DNA of 42,869 bases from a virus, in the IMG/VR virus record IMGVR_UViG_3300045922_000174; one strand, 5' to 3'. A program made the translations under genes and the position numbers. Below, piece by piece: positions 2,505 through 35,696 of this stretch (its first letter is position 1; the number at the start of each line of letters is the position of its first letter). The notes under the pieces were generated by a model. The model did not search any database. It was not told the DNA's origin and was given only the letters and a program-made list of their open reading frames with translations.

Positions 2505-2677
2505 TTTTTGACCTCCGGTTTTTGGGGTTTGAGACCGTTGCATTTTGGGCATCCGTCCATCGTTGCATCGCCGCGAAGATGGGTCTGCCAGAGCAACCAA
2601 GCCAGCACGGTTTGGTCTGCATTTGCGCCGTAACGCTTCAGAGCGCGCGCACGTACCTGTCATGCAGGAGTTTGCCT

Positions 2678-18876: not shown

Positions 18877-21800
18877 TTATTCAATAGTTGGCAGAACCGC
18901 ATTGTCAATCCAATCTTCCAGATTGCCCCACGGCTCTCCTAAACTGCGCCAAATGCGTTCGATTTCTAATCGCGCTCCCGGTAATAACGCCTCTCTACGA
19001 TACTTCAATGCGTACAACTGCATAATCAATCCTCTGGAGAAGCGTCTTAACTCGCTTGGCGTCAGATACGGACGCGCCGGCTTCGGCGATACACTTCGTG
19101 ATGTTCCTCCTGTGCCTGTTCCTGTGCTGGTTCTTCCACCTCCTCTTTCTCCTAAAATACTCCGTGCTAAACTTTCGTCTGTCAAAATGTACGGTGCGGC
19201 TTTGGGATATTGCGCCGCGAAATTGCGCTGGAACTCCCAATACTGTTCCAGTTCAGGATGCGCCGCTCTGAATGCACGCCGTTGCTGTTGCGGCAATGCG
19301 AAATAACGCTCCTGCAACTGGAAGATGTCCGGGAATAATTCGTCCCTCATCGCACGGTACATATAAACATACTGCTGAATTTCAGCAGGCAGACCGGCTA
19401 ACCGATTATTCTCGCCAATAACATACGGAATAATCTCTGGGTTTTCAGCAAGATACTTGTTCTGCCAACGAATAAACTCTTCGTTGTTCTCCGGTTGCTT
19501 CTCGAATAAAGCCCGCAAGGGGTCTGTCTGTTGCGGCGTCTCGCTCCGCGGGAACAGTCTATCGCGCTCTTCATAGTACTGCTTCACCTTCGCTCGCACA
19601 TTTTCGGGAAGCCAATTTATCTCCATCTTTGCATCATGGACATTCTCCAATGGCTTTTCCCCTAACGTGTTCGCCCACAGTGCTAACGTATCGGTGTCAA
19701 TACTGCCGTACGAACGTGTCTTCTTATCCAAGAATAACTCGGTGAACTTGTTTCCAGCCATCTGCTTGAACATACGCTGGGAAGCCGGGTCGAGGTCAAG
19801 GTATCGTTCCCAAATTCTCGAAATCAGGAATGCACGCAGTCGGCTTTGCGGGTTTTTCATCGCCATTCGCCGCGCATCATATTCAGGATATTTCTCCCAA
19901 AACTTGTTCACCGCTTGCGTGTCACCCTTTTCCTGCGCCTCATACGCTTTGGTCAATTCGTTCTTCAGCGCACGCATTTCGGCTTCGCCTTCCGGGAAGA
20001 TGTCCAGTGCTACACCAGCACCAAGCATCCGTACGAAACCGGTTTGCGATACGCGCCGTTGTGCTTCTTCGAATGCTTCTCCTTTCCGCTCAATCATGGC
20101 ACGAATGGCGGTCTGCTCATCCAGAAGACCATCCGCAACCATGTTGGATAATTCACGGTCAACACGATAATCTTCCCAACGGTCAATCTTGGGCAAGCCG
20201 GTGGCTGTTCTCACAAGACCTTCGATGTTGATGCCACGCGGGCCCCCAATGCCAAGCGCACCAGTAATGTTCTGGATGGTTCTGGTCAATGGCATTTGAC
20301 CAATGCGTTCCGGTGTTCCCATTGCATACTGATACGCAATGCCAATCGGCAGACTGGGCCCGTAAATGCTGAACAACATATCGGCACTATTGCGATATTC
20401 TCGTTCGGTCTCATTCTCCGCCTGTGCGTACGCTCGCTTCCAGATGGGCGTATTCCGCTTCCGCAAGGCTTCCTGTAATTGCGCATCGGTGATTTCCTCG
20501 TTGTCACGCATCTCTTTCAAGATGCTCTCTGTCTTGCGTATCAGCATGTTGCGCTCTTCGGCGATTTCTACAAACGGTGTCGCCAATTGCAGGAACGGGA
20601 ATATCTGCCTGTATGGGTCAACATATCCATACTGACCCATCCACTCCGGCAGGAACGGCAACGGAATAGGTACTTTCCCTTTCAATCGTTGCGGGAAGCC
20701 ATCCTTTTCCTCGCGGCGGGAAGCCATGCGCATCAGACGGTAGTAATTCGCCAAGATGGACGGCTTGTTCGCCATGCGAAGCAACCAGTTTATCATCGTG
20801 CGGGTGTACCAGAACTGGTATGGGAACACCGCCGATAGCAACGTATCGTAGCCATGCCGTCTGTCGTAATTCAGCAAAGCGAAATCACGGCGGGTTTCAC
20901 CCCAACGGATTGCGCCCATTCGAGTATCCGCAAGATTGGAGTACACACCACCCAAGTATCGCCATAAATTGTCTTCGGTCTCTTTCGGAATGCGGACGCC
21001 GCCGGCTTTCTCTGGACTGAACGCATCCAATGCCCGGTTTTTGGCTCTGTCCAGAATTGGCAACACATCTCGCAATGTGCCTTCCAGCATCGCATCACGC
21101 ATGGGCGCGTCTCTCATGCTATCGTATGTGCCTAATGGCGCGCCGACTGCATCGGCTACTCTTGGCTGTTCTCCGGCTGGTTGCTCTCCGGTTGGCTGTT
21201 CTCCAACGGGTTCTCCAACGGGTTGTTCTCTGACTGGTTGCTCTCCGAAGAGTTCGGTGATGGGTTCTCCGGCTGGCTCTGGCTGTCTTCCAGCGGTACT
21301 GTCCATGACCTCACCAACGGGCGCAACGGGGGCAGTTTCTGCGGGTGGTTCTGTGACGGTTCGTGCTGTTTCTCTTGGTACATCTTGTATCACCTCAAAT
21401 CGCACATTGTTTCTGGATGCCGCCGCATCGAACAAATCTTGCTTGCTTATCCTGCCAACGTCAAACATGGTCATCTGGTTTGCTGGCGGCTGTTTCAATG
21501 CCATGTCTACATACGTGCGGATAACCGCATCCAGCTTGCGTGTCTCACGTCCAACATCGTCAATCATCTTGACTAAACTGCGCTGAAAGCCGGTCAGGTC
21601 ATCGGTTGGGAACAACGTGGCTTGGCTCAAAAATTCCTTGACGGACATGCCCTGTTGCTTCAGTCTGGCTATCACGTCCACCGCGGCACTCAAATCATTG
21701 GCAATGCTGTATTCTGGTGAGACCACACCCATCCCGATTTGCGCTTCCAAATTCGCCATTGCTGGAAGCGTGCGGAATAACACGCTTTGCAGGGAACGGA

Positions 21801-24800
21801 TGCTCACGTCTAGACTTTCGGAGAATGCGGTAATCAATCTCGCGCCGGCTTCATTGGCATAAACCCGCGCAAACATGGCATTGATGATGCGCTGGGCTCC
21901 AACAGAAGACAATCTGCCGCTTGCGTCCATCATCGAAGCGCGTTCGTTGGCTGGCAACTGTTGAACGAAACTGCGCACAAAATCGGCATTCTTCGAGGAT
22001 GCGATAATCGGGACAACCTCATTGACGTTCTCCGGGAATTGGATATTCTTCAATGCTTCGTCACTGATAAATTTCGCATCCTGTAATGCCTTTTCGGCAG
22101 GTGACATTGCCATCACCGCGATTTGATTGGCTTCACGTGCAAATGCCGCCCGGTCAACGTCATCTTTTCGTACTCGAACCAATATCGGATTTTCTATTCC
22201 GCTGATGTCTATGCCTAGCTCTTGGGCGCGCATTGCCAAAGCATTTTGATACTGTTGCCATTTATCAGGATAATTCTCCTTTGCAAAGCGTAATGCCATT
22301 GCACGTCCGTTCCCGCTCTCAACAACGAAATCGGGCCCGACAATTATGGGGCCCCGGTCAATATATGGACTGTCATTCAGCAATTCGCCTGGGCTTAATT
22401 CGGACGCAATGCGATTAACTTGGTCACGGCTTGCGGCGCGTCCACGAACACGCGGTTGCAGTTCGCTGGGATACGCTGGATTTTCGCTGAAATTATCCAG
22501 ATGGCTGATGACCAACTGGTCAAGCGGGACAACCTGATATTCAAAGTGATACACCTTATTCACGTCTTGACCACGTGCCGTAGTCAGCCGCGATGCCTGT
22601 TCTGGTTGTGGAACTTCCTGCCGCAACACCGGCACTTCAGGTTGGCTCATCAGGTCATGAACGTATGTGGCGTTCTCAAATTCCTTGTCAACCTTTGTCT
22701 TGGGCAGTCCATACGGTTCTTCAGACAACCACTTGTCGAACACCGAACGGATGTTTTCGTCCAGTACAATCGGTTCTCCTCCCGATATGATGTTGCGAAT
22801 GCTCTTGTAAATATCCAGTAGCCATCGTTTGAACTTCTCAAAGATAGACTTCATGCGATGATTGGGTGCTTTCCCTTCGGCAAGATATTTCTCGAATGCC
22901 GTTGCAAATAATTCTTTCTCTCTTCGATGGGTGCGCGTGCCATACTGCCATCCTTCGGGAAGGTCTTCAATCTGGTAGACGCTTTTCAACCAGCGTTCGA
23001 CTGCGGCAATATCGTCCTTTGGAAGCATGGTCAGGAACGAGTGCGCCGTTTCGTGGACGAGTGTAGAAATGTCTCCACTTTGCTTGAAGATGGTAATCAA
23101 CGCCTTACCATCTTTCATGAATTGCGTCATACCTTTGGGAATGTCCTCGTCTGCCGGTCTTCTGCTGAAGAGTGGCTGTCCTTCCAGCACGCTCCTGCGC
23201 ATGGCATCGGTAATGGGGACGAACAGGAACTCGTTTGGTTCTCCCGGCAAATACATTGCTTCTGGCTCAACGCCCCATTTCTTCACATAGTCTTCGATTT
23301 TACGCGGCAGAATTTCATCGTAGAACTTCTTCAATCCACCGTGCGTAGTGTCGTAGGAAAGCCGGTTGAATGTTATGTTGCCTTCTTTCAAGAGACGATT
23401 GATATGTTCCAGCGAAAATTCTCCATCCACAAGTGATTTATTTAGCCTGTCATGCAAGACTTGTGCGGCATTTTCCACTGGAAGACGAACATATTCACTG
23501 AAAAGATACTCGTATCCTTCATCAGGTGTGTACACGTAGTATTCCAGTTTGTGAAAACCGTCCCCTGTGTTCCGTATTTCAATTTTCTCTATTGGAACGG
23601 CATATCTTCTGGTATGAATATCACCGCTTGCTATAAGAATGCCATCCATTTTCCGTTCGGCGGCGTAGTGAAGCATCCGCTTGAACACCAAAATATCCCA
23701 TTTCTTCGCAAATGGCATTTCTTGGTAGCCAAATTCTCGCAATATCTTATCTGCCATTTGCGGTGATGTTTTTGTTTCTTTATCCGCTTCGAACTGTTTT
23801 TGCTTTTGACGTAGCTCTTCGAAGAAGTCACTTTGGATTTCATCCACGTAAAGTACGCGCTCGCCGGTGTCTAATGTCAGTTCTTTGGTTCGTGCATGGG
23901 CAACTATGCCGTAATCTTCAAAATGCGTAGAACGATAAATAGCAGTTCTCGCATCTGGCATTTTTTCTTTTTCATAAGTTATCTTGAAAATATTATCTGG
24001 CTTTTCCGAACTTCGAAATCTCAATTCGACTTTTCCATCCGGTTCGACTTTGTAGTCTATTAAGTTTTCCAAACCATAAACTCTGAATGTGTCATAAATG
24101 TTAAGTTTCAAACTATGAACATCCAACGTTTTTGTTATATCGGGCATACCTGCTCTTTCAATGCGAATAGTTCCCCGATAGGCGTCTCTCATTGTTATAG
24201 GTACAAGCACGAACTCACGATAATTTTTACCACTGCCATATTTCAATTCGGAGAATTTTGGCATGTACTGTTCATATTTTGTTCGTCCCAATCCCATCTG
24301 TTCTTCTAACAATCTTTTCCAGACAGTGGGTCTTTCTTCTCTAAATTGAGGATTTTTCTCCTTCAGAGACCGCATAATGTCGTCCACTTTCAGGACTAAC
24401 TTTTCTAAATTTTTCCTCGTCAACCCCTCTATTTTTGTCAATGTAGCCAATTCGACAGAGTTTCTTTGCAGATACTCCATCAGCTCTGCTTTTGTGACGT
24501 AATCTTTTCGGGCAATATATTCGTCCAATCCCGTCCAAAGCATTTCTTCTCGTGACAGACCACGCTTTTTGAGATAACCCAAGAATTGCCCGCTGGACAT
24601 GCGCTCCTGCGGCATGGTCTCCACTGCCCTGAAAGTCGGAGAATAGTACCAGCTCGCCGGCTCATCCGGCGATTTTCTACGCTGGAACAACGGCAAACCC
24701 TCTTCTACGCTGTGTCTCATTTCCCACGTGATGGGGATTTTTGTCAGGTCAACCTTGCCCAACTTTTCCGTTTTTACGGTTTCTGTTTCGGGAACAACAT

Positions 24801-27800
24801 TCCATTTTTTGAATAACTTTGTAGCCACACTCTGGACAACTTTGTCGTAGAAATAGACCAGACCGGGATTTTCTGTAATGACAACGCCATTATCCTTTGG
24901 TAGTTTTATTGTGACAGTCAGATAATTGAAGTAGTCCGCTTTTCCTTCCGTATATTTTCCGCTTTGTAATTGTTTGACCAATGCGTCTAAAATCTGGTCA
25001 ATCATGTGTTCGTGCGGAATGTATTCTTTCAGCTGGTTTTTGAGGAAGGCGCGATGTTCAGGATTGTTGACCAGCGTGATTGCCGTGTTCGTTTCCGGGT
25101 CAGAAGGTAAGTAATTAACCCTTCCGTATCCGAATATTCCTTTGGAATAGTCATCATCCACAAGAAGTTGGTACAGATACGGCGCATTTTTGGCAATCAT
25201 TATTTCTATTTTTTCGGGTGATTTCTTTGTGTTGTAATACAAAGCGGCGTTCATTACGCCGGACGGAAGGATAAAGTAGTCTGCATCAGTGGCTTTAACG
25301 GCATAGTGCAACGCTCTTTTGAGACCAAGCTCAACCCATTTCTTGGTATCGCTGAATGGAAAATCATTTACAAAGTTTCTAAAATACCTTTCAGGGTCGT
25401 AATATAAATCTGATTCATCCGCAAAGAAAAGAACTTTTTTCCCATATATAACATAGGTGAAATCTTTTTTTTGTTCGAGATATGAAATTATCTCGTCCGG
25501 GTTTTCCTTGAAACGTTCCACAAGCCATCCTGCAGCTTGTCTACCTGTTTTGATGCCGTTATAGTATATATCGTATAACGCCACTTCAGGCTCTCGTGGT
25601 AATGCATAGTCGTCAATCGTTTTCTCAAAATGCAACTGGAAACTAAATTTGGTGGGGTCAAGTCGCTCAACACGCTGTGGTAACCCGTCTTCTGCATTGA
25701 CAAATTCCAATTTTTTCGCTTGGAATAAATCGCTTTGAATTTCCTCTGCAAAGAACGCTTTTTTGCCGTTCTTCGTTCGGATTTTCCCTCCGCGTACGTG
25801 CAAGAACGGGAGTGGTTCATTCTTATCGAGAAGTCTGTCTGCCCAATAACCCGCTTTTCTCCAATGAGTTCCTGCCACATCCGACCAGGCGTGTCTAAAA
25901 TTAATATTCAATTGTGCTGATGCTAAAAGCTCTCTGTCTACATAGACTTCAATGCTTCTTCCGTCTTTGGATGTTCTCCATTCGACATCCAGTTTTTCTC
26001 CATGCAAGCGCGCCCAACGTTCTTTTTGGCGTACGGCTGTCCGTAAAAGTTCAAGTGCTTCTAATTTCGTGACATCGTACGGGTTGTCTGCAAATACCCT
26101 TGCGTCACCGGCTACAGACCACGTTCTTCCTTGATGCTCATTGAGTAACAGTAACTCAACGTAATCCCCACCCGATTGCGCAACATAACTATACTCACCG
26201 TATATGGGCTTTCCGCTTTGTTCAATGTCTGCGATTTTCTCTTTCTCTCTGCCAAAGCGTTTGGCACGGTTATAAAGCGTTTTGACGTCCGGGTATCTAT
26301 ATTCAATTTCTTGCCGCAACCATCCACGCGTGAGGATGTCATTGTCATCGAACAGGTCAAAAACTCCAGACCAGTAAATTTCGTTCTCGCTGACACCGCG
26401 CCCAAGTAAATATCGTTTCCACTCACCGATTGTCGCTTTATTGACGCGCGCCTTGTCAATCTCCTCCAATAACTTGGATGAATACCACTTATTGCCAACA
26501 CGCTGGAATAATGGCTGACCCGCAAGTAAGTCATCTATCATCCGTGGTTCATCTACATCAAGCACCCACGCCCCGGGCTCCCATAAAAACGGAAGGGCAT
26601 CTTCTTTGTATTGGAACGCCTTGCCCCACTTCTTCAGGTACTTGTTGGCAGTGGCAATCAATCGTTCATCATAGAACTTTCCAACACCAGCATTGGCGGT
26701 TTTCAGCATCTCTTTGTCAACGTCTATGAGAATTTGTCCTTCATCGGCTTTTTGCATAACATGCTCTGTTAATTTTTCGCCGATATAACTTGGCAATTCC
26801 CTGTAAGTATTTACTCTTTCTATTTCGTTCTTTCCTTCTGTTGGATAGATTAGCAACGTAACTGATTTTGTAAAGTCTGGTTTTCCTGTTCCGTCATCTT
26901 CAAATGTAACTTGTAGTCTTTCAATCCCCTTTGATAAATCCCATCGCTCCTCATGAACTTTGCCCGGAGAAATAGCAATCATGCTGTACCCTTCTTCAAT
27001 TGCATAACGCAACATTCTCTTTATAGCCAATTCATCCCAATTCTTGCTGAAAGGAGCCGGCGGTACTTTATTTTCAACTTGCGCTATCCATAATGCGGCA
27101 TATCTTGGCAGTATTCCAGTTTCTTGGTATCTCTCAAAATCACCGCTGTCAATTTGTGTAATCGCTAACCCTCGTTTGTCGAGAATGGCATAAATGCGTT
27201 TTTCTCCTAATGTATCGCCTGTATCTACAATTTTATAGCCTTCCGGCAAAGTTCTATCGAGCTCCCCAAAATAACCATACCTCCGCCCTGCTTGATGCCA
27301 ATCACTTTGAATCTCGTCTATGTATAAAATCGTACGTCCTGCATGTTGAAAACCCGTATAACGAACGTGAACAATCGGATTGAGTTCAGACCAATGCGGA
27401 CTTTGATAAACATAATTACCAAGTATAAAATTTCGTATTGCTTCATGAGGCGTCTTGTCCACCTCATAAACCGTGCCATAATATTTATCTCGAATGGCGT
27501 ATCCCCCTTTAAGTACATTATCAGGCACTAACTCGACATCTGGCGGAAGAGAATCAGTGTAATACAATGGCAATTGTAGTAAAAGCTCATTATATCCAAG
27601 AAATTTTTCACGTAAATCAGCAGAGTCTTTTCCTCTCCTTATTGTTTCCCTATAAGTACTATATAGTTCGTATTTAGGAAAATATTTTCTCCGTATAGAG
27701 AAGTCCTTTACGCTCATTACTTGTGTGGCTTCCGTTTCAAGATAATCAATCAAATCTTGTTTCGTCACCACCTCATTGCCTTTGCTGGCAAGATAATTCG

Positions 27801-30800
27801 AAAGACCCATCCAGCGAAGCTCTTCATCCTTCACCTGCGCGCTTTTCAGAATGTTTAGCCATTGATTCGCCGGTGCTTTCTCAACTTTTGCCCCCTCAAT
27901 CGCCTGTTGCGATTTCAAGTAATACCATTGACTACTTACGTAACGGGACTGTTTCAAATCCTCTTCGTCAACCGGTAAATCCTTGTACTGGATAATAAAT
28001 CTTTCGTAGAACGCATCCGGTGTCGTGTTGTATTCTCTTGCGTAATGGCTCGCCATCGCATCCCAAATCTTCAGCATGGCATCGGCTTGCTCTAACGCTT
28101 TCCGCTCGTCTCTCATCCGCTCCGTGAGAAACTCCAGAACCCCTTGATAAGCCACCTGTCGGGCATACTCCGGCTCATCTGCCCGCGCCAAGACATCATT
28201 CATGTTCAGCTCAATCACGCGCGCCATCTGTTCTGCCTGTTGCATCCAATTGCCTTGCGCAAGCGGTTCGGACGGCGGTTCTGTCGTTTCTCCTTCCACC
28301 TTCTCCAGAGAGTATGTGGAACGGTCATACTTCATAAAATTCGGGTCGGCGTTTCGTTGCGCCTCGGACGCCTTCAATACTTGATATACATCCTCAATAG
28401 ACGGGATGTCGCTCAACTTCCCAACGGCATAGTGCATCATCATTCCGGTATATCGCTCGATTTGCCCGGTCTCGCTGTTTTTCATGGTCAGTGTGCCATG
28501 CAACACCCGTTCCTGAATTTGCTTGGCGTAATTTTCGGCGTCCTTTTTCTTCTCGAAAATCGCCGCAAATTCATCACCACCAATCCGATATAGACTGACA
28601 CCTAAACTGTCCGCCACATCCCCAATGTACTGAATGTATGCGTTCCCAACCAAATCACCAAATTTCTTATTGGTGAGATGCAGACCGCGCAAATCAAACG
28701 CAATAGTCCAGTATGACTTCGGCTTCTTTGCCCTTTTATTCTGCTCCGCCAATTTCTCAAGGTCTTTTATCATCCGCCCTTTGTTGCGGAAACCGTACGT
28801 ATCATGGTCGGCTTCAAAATCTCTGCTCTCCAACGCCCGCGCCATATACACCGCTTGCTCGGACAATGCGTCTTTCGGCATTTGCCCAACGTCTTGAAGC
28901 GGCGCAATGTCATAACCGGCATTGAATCGGTCAATCCGTTTCGTTTTCTTTTTCTCTTGAATGGCGCGCAATAAGACCGGAACAGTAATATCTTTGATGC
29001 TCCGAACGTATTCATATTGTGCATAGGCTCTCACGAAATTAATCAAATGCTGTTCAGAACCTTTCAACGGTCTGCCTTGCGCATCCACCTGTCTGAATTC
29101 TGGTAATTCCTGTGCAACCAGTTTCCAGATAATTTGCTCTTGCCGTCTTTGCTCTTCAAATACGGCATCGTATGGTTGCGATGGAACGTATGTAGACTGC
29201 GGCTTTTCTTCTGCCGGCTTGACCTCCGCCGTTTCGGCTACGGGTTGTGCCTGTTCGGTCTGCGCCCGTGTTTCTGGTCTCAAATTTAATTCCGGCTTTT
29301 CCAGTGACGTGCTTCCCACCGCATTTCGATTGGACGTGTCCAGCAGTTCGGCAATCAAAGGCTGATAAATCGTCTGATAGAATATCTGATTGATTCTTTC
29401 CCTTTCGCGGACTGCAATCCGATGAATGGGAACGCCCTGATTCAGCTCAAGGATTCTCTGCTTCACCTCCGGTTCGAGTAAATCGCCCCACTCATCCAGA
29501 AACTCTTGCGGGATTTGTCCTTCCCGGAAGAGTAACGTTGCTTGTTGCGTGCGGCGGCGAACACGTTGTACGCTTTCACGCCAACGCATCGCATCCAGAT
29601 AGGCTTGTGGGTCACCATTCATCTGTTGCTGATACTGCCGTGCAAACGACTTGTTCAGACTGTCTTGTAGCAAATCTTCGGCAAGTATCATGAAGCGATA
29701 CTCTCTGGCAACTTGGGCATTCACTTCTTCCCAAGCCGTAGCACGCGCTTCGGCGCGCATGTTTTCCGGCATCGTTTCATCCGCATCAATTCGTTCAATG
29801 ACGCTCCAGTAGTTATCAAACGCATCCTTGCGTGTCTGATAAAAATTCCGGTAGGTGGCGTAAATATTCAGCAAGGTGGTTTCTGCGCTAACGTATTCCG
29901 GGCTTGCCTCCTCCGCGCCAAGTCCCTTGAAGATGCCCAACCACGTTGCCCCTTCCTGATTTTGGTACAACGTCCAGAAAGCATCTTGCTGTTCAAATAA
30001 TTTGCGCCATTCTCTTGCACGTTCTGCACCGGTTAAATTGCGGATTTCTTCGGCACGCATCTCCATCTGGAACATGTGATTCAGCCACACTTCGGCAAGC
30101 ATGGACGTTGCTCTATCGGCTTCATCCAGCACCGCTTGTGTCTTCTCCACATGCGCTTTTTGTGCGGCTTCCTCCACCCGCCCTTCAATGTTGCGCATTG
30201 TCTCATTGACCAAATCACGAACCAAACCACTGCGCGCTCTTTCAAATACATCTGCAATGTCTTGCTTCGAACGTGCATTGCGCAACCCCTCATCCAACTC
30301 ATCGTACATTTCGGGGAAATGCTGTTTCAAGAAATTCCGTTCTTGCCGGGTCAGAACATCGTCAAGCGAACGGGTGTCAATCTCCTTGAAAATCTTCCTC
30401 TCAATCGCTTCTTTGCTCATCCCGCTTTCGATGGCGCGCTTCACCTTATCCGCAAGACCGGGCTTGACCGTATCCAGCGCAAGGCGAAGTTCATCGCTCA
30501 TCCGCTCAAAGGCAACACCTTCTCGCCATGCGTTCTTGAAATACTCATCTATGCCATTTATCATGGCAATTTCGCTTGCCCATCGCTCTACCTTCTGCGA
30601 TAGAATGCCAAATACCTGCGCTTTCTTTCCCTTCTTCAGGAAATTGATGACACCTGCCATTGCGCCTTGCGCTTCTTTGGCTTCCTCGATATGTCGCCCA
30701 ATCCGTTCGCCTTTGGCAATCCCTTTCTTCCCGACAATCTCCTCCACACGCCCAAATTCAACATCGCCAATCTCTGCCGCACCAATACCCTGACGCAAAC

Positions 30801-33228
30801 GGGTGGGCTCCATGTCGAAATCACGCAAGAACTTCATGCGCGCTTTCGGACTGCGCCGGTTGAGTAAGCCGTCCCACGCCAACGTGACAATGTTGTTCAA
30901 TGCATTGTTCACGAAATAAGTCGGGTTCAACCCCAACAGTAAATAGCCTTGAACGCGCTTGTTGATGTCTATCAACGCTTCGCCCAAGCCCATCTTCTTC
31001 AAGCCGAAATATCGCGCTGACCATTCGTCTGCATGGTCAGCAAGCAAGGTAATCAGATGATAACGAAATACATCCGGGTCAAAAGCCGGCGCTTTCGCTC
31101 CATAGAAACCATCCGCAATTTGTTTCAGTTTCTTTGCACCGTCCGGGTCAACCGTAAAAGCGTTTAGCACCTCATACGTTCGCTTCCCCGCATCTGACAG
31201 TTTCTGATAATCCCCCAATGACTGTATCGCATCACGCAAGAGGGCTTGCGCTTTCGCATTGTCCCCAACGTGCAGGTCACGCAATACGGCGTATGGCTCT
31301 TGTCCCAATGCCAATGCCAATACATGAATCACCCGTCTTTCTGGCTCCGCCTTCTGGTAATTCGCCAACAACTCTTCCACCTTTGGCATGGCGTCACGAA
31401 TTGCCAACGGAACGTGTTGCGCCTCTGTGCTGGAGAACCAGCGCGGCAATGGCGCATCTACCAATTTGCCGCCAACACTCATCTTTATCGTCCCGGTTGC
31501 GGCTTGCACTGCATCTTCGGGTGTAAGATTAGCAATGCTCCTGACCAAATCCACCATGTTTTCGGGACTTTTCTTCTCCAGCGTCATCAGATTGGTCAAG
31601 CCGTCCACCGTGTTCTGTAACACGGACACGGCACGCGCTTTTGGCGTCAGACCGAAAACATTGGCATACAGACTGCTGACTAAATTCTTGTTTTCCGGTT
31701 TGGTGAAGTCAATCACACGCCCTTGACTGTCCAAGCCGGCGATGAAGCGTGCCAACGGATTGAGTTTTGCGGCTTGGTCAACCGGCAACTGGCGTGCTAA
31801 ATGGGCATAATATCGCGCTCCGGTCAATAAATCGGGAACACGCCCGGGCTGTTTCAAAAATGCTTCTGCCGCCATCGGATGTCCGGTGAGTTGTGCCGTT
31901 TTCCCAATCGCCTTTGAACCGACAACACCGGTCAAATCCAATGGGTCAAGGACGTAACCGCCAATCAAATCAGCAAATTCACCGCTGAAGCCAAACTGCA
32001 TCGTGTACCAGTTCAGGACTTCATCCGGTGTTATATCGCCGCGTGCCAATGCACGGCGCATTTCGGTCAACGCCCATTGGGTTGGCATTCCCTTTGGCGT
32101 GATAATGCTCTCATCTTGTGGTCTGGTGAGTTCAATTCGTGTAAATCCCGGCGTTCCTTTTCCGGTGAGTTGCTCCAGAAGCACTTCAATTTGCGCTGGA
32201 ACAGTGGCGTACAAACCACGTCCAGCCGCCGCGGCGGCTTCCCAATTCTTCAAAATCTCTTCGACTGAACCGTACTGTTCAGGGTCAATTGCTGAATACA
32301 ATAATTGCGTCAAAATACCAAGCAATTCCTGACTTTTACGGTACGGCTCATCTAGCAATGCCAATGCTTTCAACCAACCGGGCTCTTGATACACGCCGCC
32401 GCTGGCAATGATTTGTTGGGCGCGCTCCATCTCCTTGTACTGCGCCACGCCAAGTCCAGCACCACCCGCCAATCCGATGACACCACCAACCGGGCCCGCA
32501 AAAGCAAGACCTAAAATCCCGAAATTGAGTGCCGATTGTGCCGCCTGACCGGGCATGGTGCGGAAGATTGCCAATGCGGCTTTCTTCCAATCCGGCAATT
32601 GCTTCCACGTTTCCTCGTCAATCCCATACTGCGTCCAGGGCCCCACTGTGCCAACCTGTTTTGGCGGCACATACAAGCCAATATTCTTGGCTACCTCGAA
32701 CGACCGTGCCAATTGCTGACGTTCCCAATCCGGTATCGCTTCAATCGGCGGTGCAGGCATTTGCTTTACAAAATCGTGAAGCGGGTCATCCTTGCTGATT
32801 TGTCCCCAATTTATCCAGTCATCGCCGTATCTGGCGGTCAATTCTTTGTAAGCGGCTTCCAGTTTCGGCATGTCCAGCCATGCAGGCGGTTGAATGTCCG
32901 GCATGGTCTTGATGGCATTGTAGTATCGTCCAATCCGGCGTGCATCCGTCCAGAAATTCCCACCGGAGTTCCGGTCTTGCGCCACCCAATATTCTCCCAT
33001 CGGGCCCGGAATTTGCGGACGCGCAATTTCCATGCCCATTTCGGCGAACCGTTGTTGTACCAACGGATTATTGATGAACTCCTGCGATACATTCCAGAAA
33101 TACTCACCACCCGGCAGGTTAAAACGACCCACACCGGGCGATTTCTGATACTGCTCCGGCGTGTATTTGGGTGCTGGAATAGGAGTAATTTTGTTTGTCG
33201 GTGCGCCGTATGGGATTTTGGTTGCCAT
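18877..33228 (-). CDS. Giant multidomain virion-associated 'polyvalent' protein (4,783 aa) in the minor-head-protein (MuF) slot
   Basis: An uninterrupted reading frame of 14.35 kb. The likely start is ATG 33228 (MATKIPYG...) after GGAGGAT, overlapping the upstream stop (TGATG); the track start at 33261 has no RBS. It lies between the portal block and scaffold/capsid. It contains a glycine-zipper TM segment, a GGDEF-like domain, three repeated modules, an HExxH zincin and a ParB-like domain. Confidence 0.85.
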   Translation of the reverse strand: MATKIPYGAPTNKITPIPAPKYTPEQYQKSPGVGRFNLPGGEYFWNVSQEFINNPLVQQRFAEMGMEIARPQIPGPMGEYWVAQDRNSGGNFWTDARRIGRYYNAIKTMPDIQPPAWLDMPKLEAAYKELTARYGDDWINWGQISKDDPLHDFVKQMPAPPIEAIPDWERQQLARSFEVAKNIGLYVPPKQVGTVGPWTQYGIDEETWKQLPDWKKAALAIFRTMPGQAAQSALNFGILGLAFAGPVGGVIGLAGGAGLGVAQYKEMERAQQIIASGGVYQEPGWLKALALLDEPYRKSQELLGILTQLLYSAIDPEQYGSVEEILKNWEAAAAAGRGLYATVPAQIEVLLEQLTGKGTPGFTRIELTRPQDESIITPKGMPTQWALTEMRRALARGDITPDEVLNWYTMQFGFSGEFADLIGGYVLDPLDLTGVVGSKAIGKTAQLTGHPMAAEAFLKQPGRVPDLLTGARYYAHLARQLPVDQAAKLNPLARFIAGLDSQGRVIDFTKPENKNLVSSLYANVFGLTPKARAVSVLQNTVDGLTNLMTLEKKSPENMVDLVRSIANLTPEDAVQAATGTIKMSVGGKLVDAPLPRWFSSTEAQHVPLAIRDAMPKVEELLANYQKAEPERRVIHVLALALGQEPYAVLRDLHVGDNAKAQALLRDAIQSLGDYQKLSDAGKRTYEVLNAFTVDPDGAKKLKQIADGFYGAKAPAFDPDVFRYHLITLLADHADEWSARYFGLKKMGLGEALIDINKRVQGYLLLGLNPTYFVNNALNNIVTLAWDGLLNRRSPKARMKFLRDFDMEPTRLRQGIGAAEIGDVEFGRVEEIVGKKGIAKGERIGRHIEEAKEAQGAMAGVINFLKKGKKAQVFGILSQKVERWASEIAMINGIDEYFKNAWREGVAFERMSDELRLALDTVKPGLADKVKRAIESGMSKEAIERKIFKEIDTRSLDDVLTRQERNFLKQHFPEMYDELDEGLRNARSKQDIADVFERARSGLVRDLVNETMRNIEGRVEEAAQKAHVEKTQAVLDEADRATSMLAEVWLNHMFQMEMRAEEIRNLTGAERAREWRKLFEQQDAFWTLYQNQEGATWLGIFKGLGAEEASPEYVSAETTLLNIYATYRNFYQTRKDAFDNYWSVIERIDADETMPENMRAEARATAWEEVNAQVAREYRFMILAEDLLQDSLNKSFARQYQQQMNGDPQAYLDAMRWRESVQRVRRRTQQATLLFREGQIPQEFLDEWGDLLEPEVKQRILELNQGVPIHRIAVRERERINQIFYQTIYQPLIAELLDTSNRNAVGSTSLEKPELNLRPETRAQTEQAQPVAETAEVKPAEEKPQSTYVPSQPYDAVFEEQRRQEQIIWKLVAQELPEFRQVDAQGRPLKGSEQHLINFVRAYAQYEYVRSIKDITVPVLLRAIQEKKKTKRIDRFNAGYDIAPLQDVGQMPKDALSEQAVYMARALESRDFEADHDTYGFRNKGRMIKDLEKLAEQNKRAKKPKSYWTIAFDLRGLHLTNKKFGDLVGNAYIQYIGDVADSLGVSLYRIGGDEFAAIFEKKKDAENYAKQIQERVLHGTLTMKNSETGQIERYTGMMMHYAVGKLSDIPSIEDVYQVLKASEAQRNADPNFMKYDRSTYSLEKVEGETTEPPSEPLAQGNWMQQAEQMARVIELNMNDVLARADEPEYARQVAYQGVLEFLTERMRDERKALEQADAMLKIWDAMASHYAREYNTTPDAFYERFIIQYKDLPVDEEDLKQSRYVSSQWYYLKSQQAIEGAKVEKAPANQWLNILKSAQVKDEELRWMGLSNYLASKGNEVVTKQDLIDYLETEATQVMSVKDFSIRRKYFPKYELYSTYRETIRRGKDSADLREKFLGYNELLLQLPLYYTDSLPPDVELVPDNVLKGGYAIRDKYYGTVYEVDKTPHEAIRNFILGNYVYQSPHWSELNPIVHVRYTGFQHAGRTILYIDEIQSDWHQAGRRYGYFGELDRTLPEGYKIVDTGDTLGEKRIYAILDKRGLAITQIDSGDFERYQETGILPRYAALWIAQVENKVPPAPFSKNWDELAIKRMLRYAIEEGYSMIAISPGKVHEERWDLSKGIERLQVTFEDDGTGKPDFTKSVTLLIYPTEGKNEIERVNTYRELPSYIGEKLTEHVMQKADEGQILIDVDKEMLKTANAGVGKFYDERLIATANKYLKKWGKAFQYKEDALPFLWEPGAWVLDVDEPRMIDDLLAGQPLFQRVGNKWYSSKLLEEIDKARVNKATIGEWKRYLLGRGVSENEIYWSGVFDLFDDNDILTRGWLRQEIEYRYPDVKTLYNRAKRFGREKEKIADIEQSGKPIYGEYSYVAQSGGDYVELLLLNEHQGRTWSVAGDARVFADNPYDVTKLEALELLRTAVRQKERWARLHGEKLDVEWRTSKDGRSIEVYVDRELLASAQLNINFRHAWSDVAGTHWRKAGYWADRLLDKNEPLPFLHVRGGKIRTKNGKKAFFAEEIQSDLFQAKKLEFVNAEDGLPQRVERLDPTKFSFQLHFEKTIDDYALPREPEVALYDIYYNGIKTGRQAAGWLVERFKENPDEIISYLEQKKDFTYVIYGKKVLFFADESDLYYDPERYFRNFVNDFPFSDTKKWVELGLKRALHYAVKATDADYFILPSGVMNAALYYNTKKSPEKIEIMIAKNAPYLYQLLVDDDYSKGIFGYGRVNYLPSDPETNTAITLVNNPEHRAFLKNQLKEYIPHEHMIDQILDALVKQLQSGKYTEGKADYFNYLTVTIKLPKDNGVVITENPGLVYFYDKVVQSVATKLFKKWNVVPETETVKTEKLGKVDLTKIPITWEMRHSVEEGLPLFQRRKSPDEPASWYYSPTFRAVETMPQERMSSGQFLGYLKKRGLSREEMLWTGLDEYIARKDYVTKAELMEYLQRNSVELATLTKIEGLTRKNLEKLVLKVDDIMRSLKEKNPQFREERPTVWKRLLEEQMGLGRTKYEQYMPKFSELKYGSGKNYREFVLVPITMRDAYRGTIRIERAGMPDITKTLDVHSLKLNIYDTFRVYGLENLIDYKVEPDGKVELRFRSSEKPDNIFKITYEKEKMPDARTAIYRSTHFEDYGIVAHARTKELTLDTGERVLYVDEIQSDFFEELRQKQKQFEADKETKTSPQMADKILREFGYQEMPFAKKWDILVFKRMLHYAAERKMDGILIASGDIHTRRYAVPIEKIEIRNTGDGFHKLEYYVYTPDEGYEYLFSEYVRLPVENAAQVLHDRLNKSLVDGEFSLEHINRLLKEGNITFNRLSYDTTHGGLKKFYDEILPRKIEDYVKKWGVEPEAMYLPGEPNEFLFVPITDAMRRSVLEGQPLFSRRPADEDIPKGMTQFMKDGKALITIFKQSGDISTLVHETAHSFLTMLPKDDIAAVERWLKSVYQIEDLPEGWQYGTRTHRREKELFATAFEKYLAEGKAPNHRMKSIFEKFKRWLLDIYKSIRNIISGGEPIVLDENIRSVFDKWLSEEPYGLPKTKVDKEFENATYVHDLMSQPEVPVLRQEVPQPEQASRLTTARGQDVNKVYHFEYQVVPLDQLVISHLDNFSENPAYPSELQPRVRGRAASRDQVNRIASELSPGELLNDSPYIDRGPIIVGPDFVVESGNGRAMALRFAKENYPDKWQQYQNALAMRAQELGIDISGIENPILVRVRKDDVDRAAFAREANQIAVMAMSPAEKALQDAKFISDEALKNIQFPENVNEVVPIIASSKNADFVRSFVQQLPANERASMMDASGRLSSVGAQRIINAMFARVYANEAGARLITAFSESLDVSIRSLQSVLFRTLPAMANLEAQIGMGVVSPEYSIANDLSAAVDVIARLKQQGMSVKEFLSQATLFPTDDLTGFQRSLVKMIDDVGRETRKLDAVIRTYVDMALKQPPANQMTMFDVGRISKQDLFDAAASRNNVRFEVIQDVPRETARTVTEPPAETAPVAPVGEVMDSTAGRQPEPAGEPITELFGEQPVREQPVGEPVGEQPTGEQPAGEQPRVADAVGAPLGTYDSMRDAPMRDAMLEGTLRDVLPILDRAKNRALDAFSPEKAGGVRIPKETEDNLWRYLGGVYSNLADTRMGAIRWGETRRDFALLNYDRRHGYDTLLSAVFPYQFWYTRTMINWLLRMANKPSILANYYRLMRMASRREEKDGFPQRLKGKVPIPLPFLPEWMGQYGYVDPYRQIFPFLQLATPFVEIAEERNMLIRKTESILKEMRDNEEITDAQLQEALRKRNTPIWKRAYAQAENETEREYRNSADMLFSIYGPSLPIGIAYQYAMGTPERIGQMPLTRTIQNITGALGIGGPRGINIEGLVRTATGLPKIDRWEDYRVDRELSNMVADGLLDEQTAIRAMIERKGEAFEEAQRRVSQTGFVRMLGAGVALDIFPEGEAEMRALKNELTKAYEAQEKGDTQAVNKFWEKYPEYDARRMAMKNPQSRLRAFLISRIWERYLDLDPASQRMFKQMAGNKFTELFLDKKTRSYGSIDTDTLALWANTLGEKPLENVHDAKMEINWLPENVRAKVKQYYEERDRLFPRSETPQQTDPLRALFEKQPENNEEFIRWQNKYLAENPEIIPYVIGENNRLAGLPAEIQQYVYMYRAMRDELFPDIFQLQERYFALPQQQRRAFRAAHPELEQYWEFQRNFAAQYPKAAPYILTDESLARSILGERGGGRTSTGTGTGGTSRSVSPKPARPYLTPSELRRFSRGLIMQLYALKYRREALLPGARLEIERIWRSLGEPWGNLEDWIDNAVLPTIE
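21160..21255. repeat. Short imperfect tandem repeats encoding a Pro/Glu/Gly-rich linker (GEQPx units)
   Basis: The protein reads ELFGEQPVREQPVGEPVGEQPTGEQPAGEQPRV. The DNA shows reiterated ggctgttctcc / ggttgctctcc / gggttctcc units. Confidence 0.7.
22160..22557 (-). other. ParB/sulfiredoxin-fold (ParB-like nuclease, DdrB-type) domain
   Basis: VPLDQLVISH...ELQPRVRGRAASRDQVNRIASELSPGELLNDSPYIDRGPIIVGPDFVVESGNGRAMALRFA contains the LQPRxR and (S)GNGR motifs characteristic of ParB-like domains in polyvalent proteins. Confidence 0.6.
22800..23140 (-). other. Zincin-like metallopeptidase domain (HExxH) of the type found in phage/plasmid polyvalent proteins
   Basis: ISTLVHETAHSFL places HETAH at 23041..23055. 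It is followed by ELFATAFEKYLAEGKAPNHRMKSIFEKFKRWLLDIYKSI, which matches the HExxH ... ExFAxxFExY pattern I associate with polyvalent-protein metallopeptidases. Confidence 0.6.
23158..24651 (-). other. Repeated module copy 3 (about 498 aa) in the giant protein
   Basis: Ordered motifs are WYYSPTFRAVE...QFLGYLKKRGLSREEMLWTGLDEYI, then AHART...VLYVDEIQSDFFE, PFAKKWDILVFKRMLHYAAERKMDGILIASG, KFYDEILPRKIEDYVKKWG and GQPLFSRR. Confidence 0.7.
24652..26495 (-). other. Repeated module copy 2 (about 614 aa) in the giant protein
   Basis: Ordered motifs are WYSSKLLEEIDKA...EWKRYLLGRGVSENEIYWSGVFDLF, then LHVRG...FFAEEIQSDLFQ, PFSDTKKWVELGLKRALHYAVKATDADYFILPSG, YFYDKVVQSVATKLFKKWN and GLPLFQRR. Confidence 0.7.
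26496..27936 (-). other. Repeated module copy 1 (about 480 aa) of unknown function in the giant protein
   Basis: Ordered motifs are WYYLKSQQAIEG...QWLNILKSAQVKDEELRWMGLSNYL, then HVRY...ILYIDEIQSDWHQ, PFSKNWDELAIKRMLRYAIEEGYSMIAISPG, KFYDERLIATANKYLKKWG and GQPLFQR. Confidence 0.7.
28420..28820 (-). other. GGDEF-type (diguanylate-cyclase-like) nucleotide cyclase domain within the giant protein
   Basis: HDTYGFRNKGRMIKDLEKL (compare DxLTGLxNRR) ... YWTIAFDLRGLHLTNKKFGDLVGNAYIQYIGDVA (compare DIDxFKxxNDxxGHxxGD) ... VSLYRIGGDEFAAIF (a literal GGDEF at 28567..28581) ... MMHYAVGK (compare SIGVA). Confidence 0.75.
32440..32590 (-). other. Glycine-zipper / hydrophobic segment within the giant protein
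   Basis: ALAIFRTMPGQAAQSALNFGILGLAFAGPVGGVIGLAGGAGLGVAQY is the only strongly hydrophobic Gly-rich stretch near the N-terminus (roughly residues 215-260). Confidence 0.5.
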
Positions 33229-33740
33229 CAAATCCTCCAATTCATGACCGCAAGATACCATTCAGGTAGTTGATTTGTGCCGGCTCCGCCGCCATAGCCG
33301 CCACCATAGCCACCACCGCCACCACCGGCGAAATTGACCGGAGATGGTCTGGTTTCCTGCATCGGATAATTCAATGCCATCGCCGTCAGCCGCTGACCAT
33401 AGGTACGCCATCCACGTTGATTGGCATAATACCTTGCCCAATCCATCGGCGTCCAGTACTTCTGCTGGTAAGTGTAACGGTTGACCATTTCTTTATTGGT
33501 GTAGTAACGCGCCAATGCGTTCATCCGTGCAGAATACGCCTGTTGTGGTCTGTACGTCTGCGCCAACCCTGTCATCCGTTGGGCATACGCATTCTGCGAA
33601 CGCGATTGTTGCGTTAACGTCTGTGCTGTCGGTGCAAAAGACGGTGGTCTGGTGTAATTCCCCAATCCAGTACTGCCACCGCCACCCGTAGAAACACGGT
33701 CAATCAAATTCCTCATCCATTCAGGAATATTGCTTGCCAT
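33228..33740 (-). CDS. Hypothetical head-module protein (170 aa) with three 13-aa repeats and a Gly/Tyr-rich tail
   Basis: ATG at 33740 (MASNIPEWMRN...) after GGAGGAG. The repeats are AYAQRMTGLAQTY, AYSARMNALARYY and TYGQRLTAMALNY. The C-terminus reads FAGGGGGGYGGGYGGGAG. Confidence 0.65.
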   Translation of the reverse strand: MASNIPEWMRNLIDRVSTGGGGSTGLGNYTRPPSFAPTAQTLTQQSRSQNAYAQRMTGLAQTYRPQQAYSARMNALARYYTNKEMVNRYTYQQKYWTPMDWARYYANQRGWRTYGQRLTAMALNYPMQETRPSPVNFAGGGGGGYGGGYGGGAGTNQLPEWYLAVMNWRI

Positions 33741-33942
33741 TTTCTCCTCCTTCCACAATCTCCAGCAACTCCGGCGGGGCAATTATGCGCATTATCCTTT
33801 TGATTTCCTCCGGTATGTTCTGCCACGCAATATCTACAAGTTTCATGTCCGGCGCGTTCCACTCCGCCTCGAACTTCTCCCGCCATTCCAGCACCTGATT
33901 CATACCAAACAGTATCGCATCACTGGCTCGTAAGGCATCCAT
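33721..33942 (-). CDS. Hypothetical protein (73 aa)
   Basis: The ATG at 33942 overlaps the portal stop (TGATG) and has GAGGAGGA upstream. I recognise no motif. Confidence 0.55.
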   Translation of the reverse strand: MDALRASDAILFGMNQVLEWREKFEAEWNAPDMKLVDIAWQNIPEEIKRIMRIIAPPELLEIVEGGENGKQYS

Positions 33943-35696
33943 CACAATTCCTCCTCGCCCGGTAATCCGCGCTCAAATAATGGTTTGACCGGCTCCTGTA
34001 ACGGAAATCCTTGCAATCCCATTTGTGCTTCACCGCCATTCGCCCCGGGCGGCATCGGCGGCATCTCACCCGGCGGTTGTTGCGGCGGCATCTGCTCCAT
34101 TCCAGCCGGCGGCATCCCACCCGGCGGCATTCCACCTTGCATCATCTGTTGTGCCATCTGTTGTTGCTGTTGCGCCTGCATCATCTCTTCCTGTAGCATT
34201 TGCATAAAGCGCATTTGTGCCGCACGCTCACTCCATACGCGGTATTGCTCCATGTCCGGTTGCTCAATGCCCAAGAACTTACTGCGGGCATATTCCAGAC
34301 TGGCTAACGGATTTTCTCCTTGTGTCAACTGCAGGGCAATCATCGCATTCACGCGTTCATCCTGCGGCAAATCAATATCTAATTGTACGCTTACCTCAAA
34401 TTCATCGGGAATGTCATTGACATCATAATCAATATATCCATCATCTGTCACCACCCGTCCGCTCTCCCCCACCGTCTTCAGTATCTTGAAAGCGCACTTC
34501 AGCGCATCGCCAATTGCCCACGAAATCGTCCGCTGGTACGGCACTAACGGCAAGCGTCCAGACTGCGAAAGTAATGCCACCATGCTGAACGGCGCATTTG
34601 CACCCAACGGCTCACCCAACGTTTGACGATAAATTGTGCTATCCGCCGACAATTTATCGTACATCTCATTCATCTGCATCAGACTTGGGTCAAGTACCTG
34701 CTTCGCCAACGGCTGATAATCCTCATCGGCATCTATCGTCACCCGCCCGCCCGGCTGACTGAAGTCCATGTCCGGCGCGGTTTTGTCAGGACGGTTGCGC
34801 TTGTACAGGAACAACGGATTTGCACCTATCGCAAAGGCAAGCGATGACTGCAACGTCAATGATAAATTCTGTCGAAATACTAAATTGCTCTTCCACAACG
34901 TGTACAAAAACGGCTGGCGTGTCTGGTACACATCGCGCCCAAATTGGGAAGCAGAAAATAACTCGCTCCCTTCGCACACCTGACAAATGACGGGAATGTA
35001 CCCCCACGGGTTTTCCTCGTCAATCGCCGGTCTTTCCTGCCCTTCCACCCAAACCACATGCTGGTCAAAATCCCAATACTCGTACACCTTTATATCATCG
35101 GTGTCTTTCCGCCCTTCGATATTCTCCAACTTCAGAATGTCCCGCATGTCACCAACCCGCCGCATCTGCGCCGATACATACGCTTTCAATCCCATCTCAT
35201 CCATCACCGGATACCCCGCCGTTGGATTGATGACATCAAAAATAATCGGCGTCCGCTTCGCCAATTCCTGCAATCGCCTGTTCTTCGGATTGGACTGCAA
35301 CATCTGAACCGTGCTTTTTACGGCTATCTGGACTTCACTGTACAACAATCCAGACAACACGGCGTCATAATGCACCGGCTTCCCGCGAATACGACCAGCG
35401 GCACGCCATAAGACGTTCCCTAATCGCTCAATCTTGGACGCTTGCTCTGTCTTATAGTCCTGATTGTATTCTTCCGCAATCGAGATTTTCGGGTCTGCCG
35501 CCGTCAATAACCTGACCGCACCAACCAGCGCATTTCGCGCGTCAGGATGACGTGTCGGCTTTATCCAGTCATTGTCCGGCAAATCCCCCATGTCCTCCAG
35601 CAGGTAAATCTTCTCCATCTCTCGAAACATCTTGTCTCGATTGGAGTATCCAGAGATTACATCACTGGCATAACGTTTCACTTCATCAAAATTCAT
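33942..35696 (-). CDS. Portal protein (putative) with a Q/M/P/G-rich low-complexity C-terminus
   Basis: 584 aa, immediately downstream of terL and of typical portal size. The C-terminal 90 aa are low in complexity (MQAQQQQQMAQQMMQGGMPPGGMPPAGMEQMPPQQPPGEMPPMPPG...). Confidence 0.7.
   Translation of the reverse strand: MNFDEVKRYASDVISGYSNRDKMFREMEKIYLLEDMGDLPDNDWIKPTRHPDARNALVGAVRLLTAADPKISIAEEYNQDYKTEQASKIERLGNVLWRAAGRIRGKPVHYDAVLSGLLYSEVQIAVKSTVQMLQSNPKNRRLQELAKRTPIIFDVINPTAGYPVMDEMGLKAYVSAQMRRVGDMRDILKLENIEGRKDTDDIKVYEYWDFDQHVVWVEGQERPAIDEENPWGYIPVICQVCEGSELFSASQFGRDVYQTRQPFLYTLWKSNLVFRQNLSLTLQSSLAFAIGANPLFLYKRNRPDKTAPDMDFSQPGGRVTIDADEDYQPLAKQVLDPSLMQMNEMYDKLSADSTIYRQTLGEPLGANAPFSMVALLSQSGRLPLVPYQRTISWAIGDALKCAFKILKTVGESGRVVTDDGYIDYDVNDIPDEFEVSVQLDIDLPQDERVNAMIALQLTQGENPLASLEYARSKFLGIEQPDMEQYRVWSERAAQMRFMQMLQEEMMQAQQQQQMAQQMMQGGMPPGGMPPAGMEQMPPQQPPGEMPPMPPGANGGEAQMGLQGFPLQEPVKPLFERGLPGEEEL

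Follow-up and report, generated by a model that had tools for sequence, protein, structure and literature searches.

The DNA considered here is IMG/VR virus record IMGVR_UViG_3300045922_000174, whose entire length of 42,869 nucleotides we call the window. Its first and last 127 bases are identical (positions 1-127 and 42743-42869), and because this terminal overlap is exact, the window represents a phage genome in full, about 42.7 kb (42,742 bp) long and either circular or terminally redundant. On the minus strand, the genes for the small and large terminase subunits are followed by a portal-size gene, a small open reading frame (ORF), a giant gene, a scaffold-size ORF, and the gene for the major head protein; beyond these lie tail-fibre-like genes, an endolysin, RecT, a DnaD-like loader, and a sliding clamp. 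The giant gene encodes a multidomain protein that contains a GGDEF nucleotide cyclase domain, the main subject of this work (Table 1).

Table 1 Features of the giant gene, its GGDEF domain, and the surrounding genome
Feature	Window position	Strand	Residues	Remarks
GGDEF nucleotide cyclase domain	28297-28815	Minus	~1483-1655	
Helix preceding the DxLT-like turn	28807-28860	Minus	1468-1485	18 residues; helix 4-21 of the AlphaFold2 model
Motif HDTYGFRNKG	28777-28806	Minus	1486-1495	
Motif AFDLRGLHLTNKKFGDLVGN	28642-28701	Minus	1521-1540	
Motif RIGGDEFAAIF	28555-28587	Minus	1559-1569	
Motif HYAVGK	28417-28434	Minus	1610-1615	
First metal-binding Asp (PleD D327)	28693-28695	Minus	Asp1523	Invariant in the alignments of 10 and of 15 giant proteins
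Base and sugar-face contact (PleD N335, GacA N339)	28669-28671	Minus	Asn1531	Invariant in the same two alignments
Watson-Crick-face specificity position (PleD D344, GacA S348)	28642-28644	Minus	Asn1540	
SLGV in place of the RxxD I-site (PleD 359-362)	28597-28608	Minus		Loop 3-4 residues shorter than usual
R-x-GGDE of the active-site loop	28570-28587	Minus	Arg1559-Ile-Gly-Gly-Asp-Glu1564	Phe1565 next
Probable phosphate-binding Lys (PleD K442)	28372-28374	Minus	Lys1630	Helix alpha4; provisional
Giant polyvalent-protein gene	18877-33261	Minus		Single ORF, 4,794 residues, 33.6% of genome
Conserved N-terminal module	29272-32964	Minus	~100-1330	
Three tandem ~500-residue DEIQSD modules	23161-27933	Minus	1777-3367	Motif (D/E)E(I/V)QSD
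Zincin-like region	22726-23100	Minus		HETAH at 3403-3407; phrog_9880, E=1.2e-21
ddrB-like ParB domain	22165-22557	Minus	3569-3699	Pfam PF18763, E=5.8e-27, 94.7 bits
Conserved C-terminal module	18880-21174	Minus	4030-4794	29-67% identity within the family
Portal-size gene	33942-35696	Minus		Weak phrog_64 portal match
Major head protein	17161-18165	Minus		
D12-class DNA adenine methyltransferase	42137-42823	Minus		
Holin	37719-38099	Minus		
Endolysin	6434-7198	Minus		
RecT-like annealing protein	5134-5931	Minus		

A first-pass annotation, made from the letters alone, had read the hallmark motifs of a GGDEF domain, in canonical order, between positions 28420 and 28820. We locate all four of these motifs on the minus strand within one ORF, spanning residues 1486-1615; a plus-strand reading of the same interval is broken by stops throughout. 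Alignment to the Pfam profile PF00990, proposed with that annotation as a check, pairs residues 1491-1615 with profile positions 9-133 of 161 at 28.6 bits (E=1.4e-6), above the curated gathering cut-off of 23.8 bits that serves as the criterion of domain membership. TIGR00254 and several other NCBIfam models of GGDEF and Dgc proteins also hit this stretch, at scores below their own cut-offs, and phmmer against PDB sequences returns only weak matches, all of them diguanylate cyclases. An alignment of the GGDEF domain from ten related giant proteins (hereafter the ten-member alignment) matches canonical GGDEF domains with an hhalign probability of 99.75% (E=1.9e-27), and a profile search with it retrieved 86 proteins, all of which carry PF00990. 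The literal string GGDEF has a chance expectation of 0.004 in a protein of this composition; that figure, together with the Pfam, Foldseek, and hhalign matches, rules out a chance motif.

The predicted structure agrees with the profiles. The AlphaFold2 model built on the ten-member alignment (predicted local distance difference test score, pLDDT, 89.6; predicted template-modelling score, pTM, 0.81) and the Foldseek comparisons made with it recover the palm-like beta-alpha-alpha-beta-beta-alpha-beta arrangement of the GGDEF fold. All of the top 50 PDB matches are GGDEF diguanylate cyclase structures, with no non-cyclase fold among them; 6ttr, which comprises the GGDEF domain of DgcB and its coiled coil (E=1.4e-10, template-modelling (TM) score 0.70), ranks first. 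The viral structures that match the domain are annotated phage GGDEF proteins. An mCpol/Cas10 palm and a class III cyclase were considered and rejected, as every profile and fold match is to GGDEF proper. By profile and by modelled fold, then, residues ~1483-1655 are a genuine GGDEF-fold domain. The limits originally suggested, residues 1,460-1,610, are too short at the C-terminal end: the domain continues to about residue 1655 (window position ~28297) and takes in beta6 and helix alpha4, the latter with the likely phosphate-binding Lys1630.

Diguanylate cyclase activity requires a dimer, often held together by a coiled coil whose end lies at the DxLT motif, and fusion of the WspR GGDEF domain to a GCN4 zipper is reported to yield a highly active enzyme (PMC8041772). 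In the model of the giant-protein domain, a helix likewise precedes the DxLT-like turn, and hhalign pairs it with the helix ahead of DxLTGL in canonical enzymes. The equivalent helix is longer and clearly heptad-like in three of the related giant proteins (P0018, P0062, and P0095). It is possible that the modelled helix serves as a dimerising stalk that resembles the coiled-coil stalk of the canonical enzymes.

The PleD residue numbers and roles used here follow in part the PleD structures (Chan et al. 2004; Wassmann et al. 2007). Two of the elements by which an active diguanylate cyclase is recognized, a GG[D/E]EF loop and the first metal-binding Asp, are in place, and the first-pass annotation was right to list the metal-binding Asp (D1523), the Asn (N1531), and the GGDEF loop (residues 1561-1565, corresponding to GGEEF 368-372 of PleD) as present. 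The role of Asn1531 is taken from its GacA equivalent, N339 (PMC6456294). Asp1523, Asn1531, Arg1559 (PleD R366, preceding the motif), and the G-D-E of the loop are invariant over the ten giant proteins, among which identity in the GGDEF segment is only 18-51%. Within the loop, the second Gly, the Asp, and the Glu are invariant, and the first Gly and the Phe are nearly so. The same columns remain invariant when the alignment is extended to 15 giant proteins. This pattern points to an active site under selection across the giant-protein GGDEF domains. For the putative phosphate-binding Lys1630, hhalign places the VLK that contains it opposite the canonical AAK, MAFFT places it 3 residues off, and most family members have a basic residue.

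The inhibitory I-site of diguanylate cyclases is an RxxD motif located five residues upstream of GGDEF. In agreement with the earlier reading, both MAFFT and hhalign place SLGV, within a shortened loop, at this position. No giant-protein GGDEF domain carries RxxD, and among 32 viral GGDEF relatives the motif occurs in only one, being absent from the other 31 loci. By alignment, phage GGDEF domains thus seem in general to have lost product inhibition. We also observe a second class of viral GGDEF genes, which encode minimal stand-alone proteins of ~148-176 residues that lack RxxD (IMG/VR loci L009, L010, L014, L016, L018, L022, L023, L024, L026, and L032).

A second departure from the canonical site concerns base recognition, which in guanine-specific enzymes is carried out by an Asn and an Asp. 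Here the Asn is kept (N1531) and the Asp is replaced by N1540. The replacement, already noted in the first-pass annotation, holds in three independent alignments (phmmer against the PDB, MAFFT with 25 canonical domains, and hhalign), each of which sets N1540 opposite the Asp of GHxxGD. Within the ten-member family, Asn occupies the position in four proteins (the giant protein described here, P0018, P0062, and P0095) and Asp in six, including the closest relative, P0002. Because P0002 has the canonical Asp, the Asn is, on the aligned sequences, a polymorphism within the family and not a family trait. In a clustering of the family, the three other Asn forms make up one clade and our giant protein lies at the base of the Asp clade, so that at least one D/N switch, and possibly two, took place. 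Across all matches, giant-protein GGDEF domains have Asp in 14 cases and Asn in 9 (of 23), and small-protein GGDEF domains have Asp in 138 and Asn in 8 of 148, the remaining two being one His and one Gly. Asn is found at this position in 4 of the 32 viral loci.

The remainder of the giant protein supplies the context in which the domain has to be understood. A zincin-like region with an HExxH motif and a ddrB-like ParB domain share the 4,794-residue polypeptide with the GGDEF domain, and because several unrelated domains are combined in one very large chain in this way, the giant protein is, judged by its domain content, a polyvalent protein. The ddrB-like ParB domain is a hallmark of such proteins, and the zincin-like region is common to other members of the giant-protein family. 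The MuF domain, which is common in polyvalent proteins although not obligatory, gave no Pfam or PHROG match in the giant protein. We note that the zincin-like region is followed directly by ddrB-ParB (residues 3388-3699, window 22165-23100), the same two domains that make up DdrB of phage P1. The P1 protein undergoes proteolytic processing before packaging (PMC5512222), and the likeness of the domain pair may point to self-cleavage of the giant protein.

The conserved N-terminal module (residues ~100-1330) has no match in Pfam, PHROG, or PDB sequences; the C-module, too, found nothing meaningful among PDB sequences. The N-module is common to P0002, P0003, P0005, P0006, P0018, P0019, P0025, P0062, and P0095, at 22-49% identity. 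Within it lies a glycine-zipper, transmembrane-like segment, NFGILGLAFAGPVGGVIGLAGGAGLGVAQY (residues 228-275, minus strand, window 32437-32580), that is also seen in the consensus of related giant proteins and that may have a role in membrane insertion upon ejection. A low-complexity linker of GEQP-type repeats, GEQPVREQPVGEPVGEQPTGEQPAGEQP (residues 4006-4033, minus strand, window 21163-21246), stands just ahead of the C-module.

Between the GGDEF domain and the zincin-like region, the protein carries three tandem DEIQSD modules, each composed of a ~70-residue head domain and then a core with the motifs HVR, DGKKxLFI(D/E)E(I/V)QSDW, PPAPFxKxWxELAxKRxLRYA, FYDE, KKWG, and GQPLFQR. Relatives of the module occur in P0002, P0006, P0062, P0081, and P0092. 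The modules have no Pfam or PHROG match, and their AlphaFold2 model (pLDDT 65.5) has no PDB fold match; the module looks like an undescribed, probably enzymatic, polyvalent-protein domain. The GC content falls to 0.38-0.46 across these modules (window 23300-28100), compared with 0.48-0.55 elsewhere in the giant gene, the GGDEF segment included. This drop suggests that the repeats are cargo from a lower-GC source and that the GGDEF domain is compositionally at home.

To place the giant protein among its relatives, we draw on an exhaustive HMMER search of 1.84 billion representative proteins, a library in which the giant protein itself is present as P0001. The search gave 98 matches at E<=1e-3, the best of them giant proteins. 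A word-index search with the single domain returned no matches, another that used the family profile brought up ordinary small GGDEF proteins alone and no giants, and tblastn against GenBank phages found none; the relatives thus all stem from the HMMER search. The GGDEF domains of the family giants are 18-33% identical to the domain described here, and that of P0002 scores 44.5 bits against PF00990. Three parts are common to nine other giants, namely the N-module, the GGDEF domain at a fixed position after it, and the C-module; the middle varies. PF00990 is found in 14 of 15 related giant proteins scanned, and together these 15 also carry ART-PolyVal, LPD1, InPase, ddrB-ParB, MuF_C (1 of the 15), RadC, and Strawberry-notch helicase domains.

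Relatives of the C-module also occur in bacterial assemblies, mostly metagenome-assembled genomes (MAGs) of Chloroflexota, where they carry a Strawberry-notch helicase, ART-PolyVal, or ddrB-ParB instead of GGDEF. Because relatives with the same C-module bear these other domains in its stead, the GGDEF domain is, by comparison of the sequences, exchangeable cargo on a conserved head-module scaffold. The phage probably infects a member of the Chloroflexota, since its C-module relatives lie mainly in assemblies of that phylum. Two of the assemblies are contigs of 326 kb (L035, a Chloroflexia MAG) and 130 kb (L040, uncultured Chloroflexi), lengths that suggest prophage copies; the other loci are L034, L036, and L037. 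The giant gene of L035 is split into three ORFs.

The position of the giant gene among head genes recurs as well. The order terminase, portal, giant gene, and major head protein is found here and in L001, L005, and L006; in the independent viral contigs L005 and L006, the homologous gene is likewise flanked by terminase/portal on one side and the capsid gene on the other. MW202608 has the same head-gene order, and a Manatee Spring podovirus has a giant protein with the C-module, and without GGDEF, at the same gene position. The first-pass annotation had described the domain as lying inside a virion protein. Its placement within a giant protein encoded in a head-gene block stands, whereas membership of the virion is deduced from gene order only.

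Taken together, these features lead us to favour, with a probability of roughly 0.55, the explanation that the domain is an active, feedback-insensitive purine cyclic-dinucleotide synthase that is delivered with the phage DNA as part of a polyvalent protein; catalytic competence is predicted from the conserved core. The giant protein would be made late, together with the head proteins; gene order and the polyvalent-protein paradigm suggest that it is probably taken into the capsid and leaves it with the DNA. Inside the host cell, the domain would dimerise, possibly by way of the helix that precedes it, and each subunit would take up one purine nucleoside triphosphate (NTP)-Mg2+ via Asp1523, Asp1563/Glu1564, Asn1531, Arg1559, and Lys1630. 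The dimer would then produce a 3',5'-cyclic dinucleotide and, lacking the RxxD I-site, would escape inhibition by this product. In relatives that keep Asp at the specificity position, the product would most likely be cyclic di-GMP (c-di-GMP); Asn1540 may relax or shift the purine choice toward ATP, and so toward cyclic GMP-AMP (cGAMP) or cyclic di-AMP (c-di-AMP). The predicted outcome is a rapid, unregulated rise in second messenger at the start of infection, which would redirect the behaviour of the host or disturb its nucleotide-based defence.

Several observations weigh against this explanation. The upstream helix is short in the giant protein (18 residues), so dimerisation is not assured. 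The assignment of Lys1630 hinges on whether the hhalign or the MAFFT alignment is used, the position of PleD K332 (transition state) is occupied by H1528 and varies in the family, and PleD R446, the phosphate-binding Arg of GRN, has no aligned equivalent, with R1636 nearby. A literature search for a characterized Asn variant found nothing relevant. The case for packaging is drawn from synteny, because the searches detected no MuF domain and neither the N- nor the C-module has an assigned function.

Of the alternatives, an altered specificity of the Hypr type, which was favoured by the first-pass annotation, survives best, although we consider it unlikely. Asn1540 would then direct the use of ATP, or of ATP with GTP, and the resulting cGAMP, c-di-AMP, or linear pppNpN would serve to decoy or to trigger immune pathways based on cyclic oligonucleotides. 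The Asn at the Watson-Crick-face position, seen in all three alignments, fits this proposal, as the position governs the choice between GTP and ATP in GacA (PMC6456294). Asn can both donate and accept hydrogen bonds, and a relaxed purine choice is therefore chemically plausible. Asn is also enriched among giant-protein GGDEF domains (9/23, versus 8/148 in small proteins), besides the four viral loci. Under the 'Goldilocks' model, non-Asp variants need GGDEF and not GGEEF (PMC6456294), and the loop here is of the former kind. The Hypr rule itself, however, is Ser or Thr at GacA position 348 combined with GGDEF (PMC6456294), of which only the GGDEF half is present, and we found no characterized Asn enzyme. 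P0002 and five other members have Asp in an otherwise conserved site, so that Asp and Asn may be near-equivalent functionally, and D-to-S changes inactivate most canonical enzymes (PMC6456294), which makes single-residue predictions unreliable. The Hypr analogy drawn in the first-pass annotation is accordingly a weak one.

More specific still is the combination in which an Asn-variant, I-site-less GGDEF domain is ejected with the DNA and makes a dinucleotide other than c-di-GMP (cGAMP, c-di-AMP, or a mixture). We regard this combination as doubtful. If true, it would be a second-messenger synthase delivered by the virion, the first of its kind, with which the phage could forestall or wrongly set off nucleotide-based defence or reprogramme its probably Chloroflexota host within seconds of infection, and the recurrent D/N switch among giant-protein GGDEF domains would mark two product classes.

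A catalytically dead or weak domain, retained as a nucleotide-binding, dimerisation, or packaging module, is also unlikely and ranks just behind altered specificity. Many bacterial GGDEF domains are non-catalytic, and the variable His at the K332 position, the lack of an aligned R446 equivalent, the replacement of Asp344, and the short stalk helix would all be expected of such a module. In degenerate GGDEF domains, however, it is usually the GGDEF loop or the metal-binding Asp that has been lost, whereas D1523, N1531, R1559, and the GDE here are invariant at 18-51% identity, and without an I-site a dead domain would have no means to sense c-di-GMP. Least probable of all is an active enzyme that is not delivered by the virion and instead acts late or from a prophage, modulating host biofilm or motility much as a moron would, with superinfection exclusion by removal of surface receptors as one example: prophage-type scaffold relatives in large Chloroflexota MAG contigs and the existence of non-structural, stand-alone phage GGDEF proteins of ~150 residues speak for it, but the domain is embedded in a 4,794-residue protein of a head-morphogenesis operon, a head context recurs in every member examined, and the window ORFs scanned, a subset of all window ORFs, showed no integrase or repressor.

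The favoured explanation, a delivered cyclic-dinucleotide synthase, has been proposed before. Although the first-pass annotation knew of no description of GGDEF in phage polyvalent proteins, Iyer et al. 2017 (J Bacteriol), who defined these proteins and predicted packaging and injection for them, explicitly list it among their domains (PMC5512222). Their example is a giant protein with GGDEF from an Acetonema longum prophage (WP_004096050.1), and they proposed interference with host nucleotide signalling or defence (PMC5512222), the two roles that the first-pass annotation also put forward. Like those systems, the giant phage protein here combines GGDEF with other enzymatic domains, including a zincin-like peptidase and a ParB-type domain, is encoded with portal and terminase genes, and is predicted to be injected and to interfere with signalling. 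Unlike them, it has no detected MuF, SNF2 helicase, methylase, or ADP-ribosyltransferase (ART) domain, and it has the conserved N- and C-modules and three DEIQSD copies, a comparison in which the Acetonema protein is represented by its description only. Nor are phage GGDEF proteins new in themselves. Annotated examples are the 'diguanylate-cyclase GGDEF domain protein' of Bordetella phage CN1 and those of Bacillus phage SP-15 and Bacillus phage G (gp350), which share the phage-encoded GGDEF fold and the general absence of the I-site, but which, unlike the domain in the giant protein, are separate small proteins of about 146-254 residues.

Among cellular enzymes, PleD, WspR, DgcB, DgcR, and DgcZ (all PF00990) have the same fold (TM score 0.6-0.7). 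The domain shares with canonical cyclases the DxLT-like turn, the metal-binding Asp, the sugar-face Asn, R-x-GGDEF, a probable alpha4 Lys, and a stalk-like upstream helix. It differs from them in the Asn that replaces the guanine-reading Asp, the missing RxxD and shorter loop, the His at K332, the missing GRN Arg, the lack of a sensory input domain, and an identity of only 13-21% to solved structures. With the Hypr cGAMP synthases (GacA of Geobacter and Bd0367), it has in common a non-Asp residue at the specificity position and GGDEF in place of GGEEF; unlike them, it has Asn rather than Ser/Thr and no Rec domain. The proposed mode of delivery, packaging in the head and ejection with the DNA before phage expression, is that of the T4 Alt ADP-ribosyltransferase, the N4 virion RNA polymerase, and P1 DarB/DdrB, which differ in their enzymology and for which delivery has been demonstrated, whereas here it is deduced from the genes.

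As a sequence finding, the giant protein is therefore a further example of a kind catalogued in 2017 and would be unsurprising to a specialist in phage conflict systems. What is new is modest: a scaffold family with a fixed GGDEF position, a near-universal loss of the I-site in viral domains, and a recurrent Asp/Asn alternation. Our literature search found no virion-delivered cyclic-dinucleotide synthase that has been shown experimentally. The locus and its relatives provide a defined family in which to test the 2017 prediction that phages inject GGDEF enzymes, with the merits of a conserved catalytic core, no feedback site, and a natural Asp/Asn polymorphism at the base-reading position. Should activity and delivery be shown, 'second-messenger injection' would join the known early strategies of phage takeover, with a bearing on how phages handle cyclic-nucleotide-based immunity.

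The rest of the genome adds some detail. Among the window ORFs scanned, none is a c-di-GMP effector or phosphodiesterase, and of nine small plus-strand ORFs of at least 100 residues at 38-42 kb, the eight scanned have no Pfam match. A second viral contig of 28.6 kb, L002 (IMGVR_UViG_3300045912_000185), has a 100% identical GGDEF segment and appears to be the same virus. Upstream of the giant gene, a 184-residue ORF without a family match (minus strand, window 33228-33782) overlaps the annotated ATG (33261) by 34 bases. The giant protein is homologous to P0002 only from residue 14 onward, and a second Met, at residue 12 (MATKIPYG), may be its true start.

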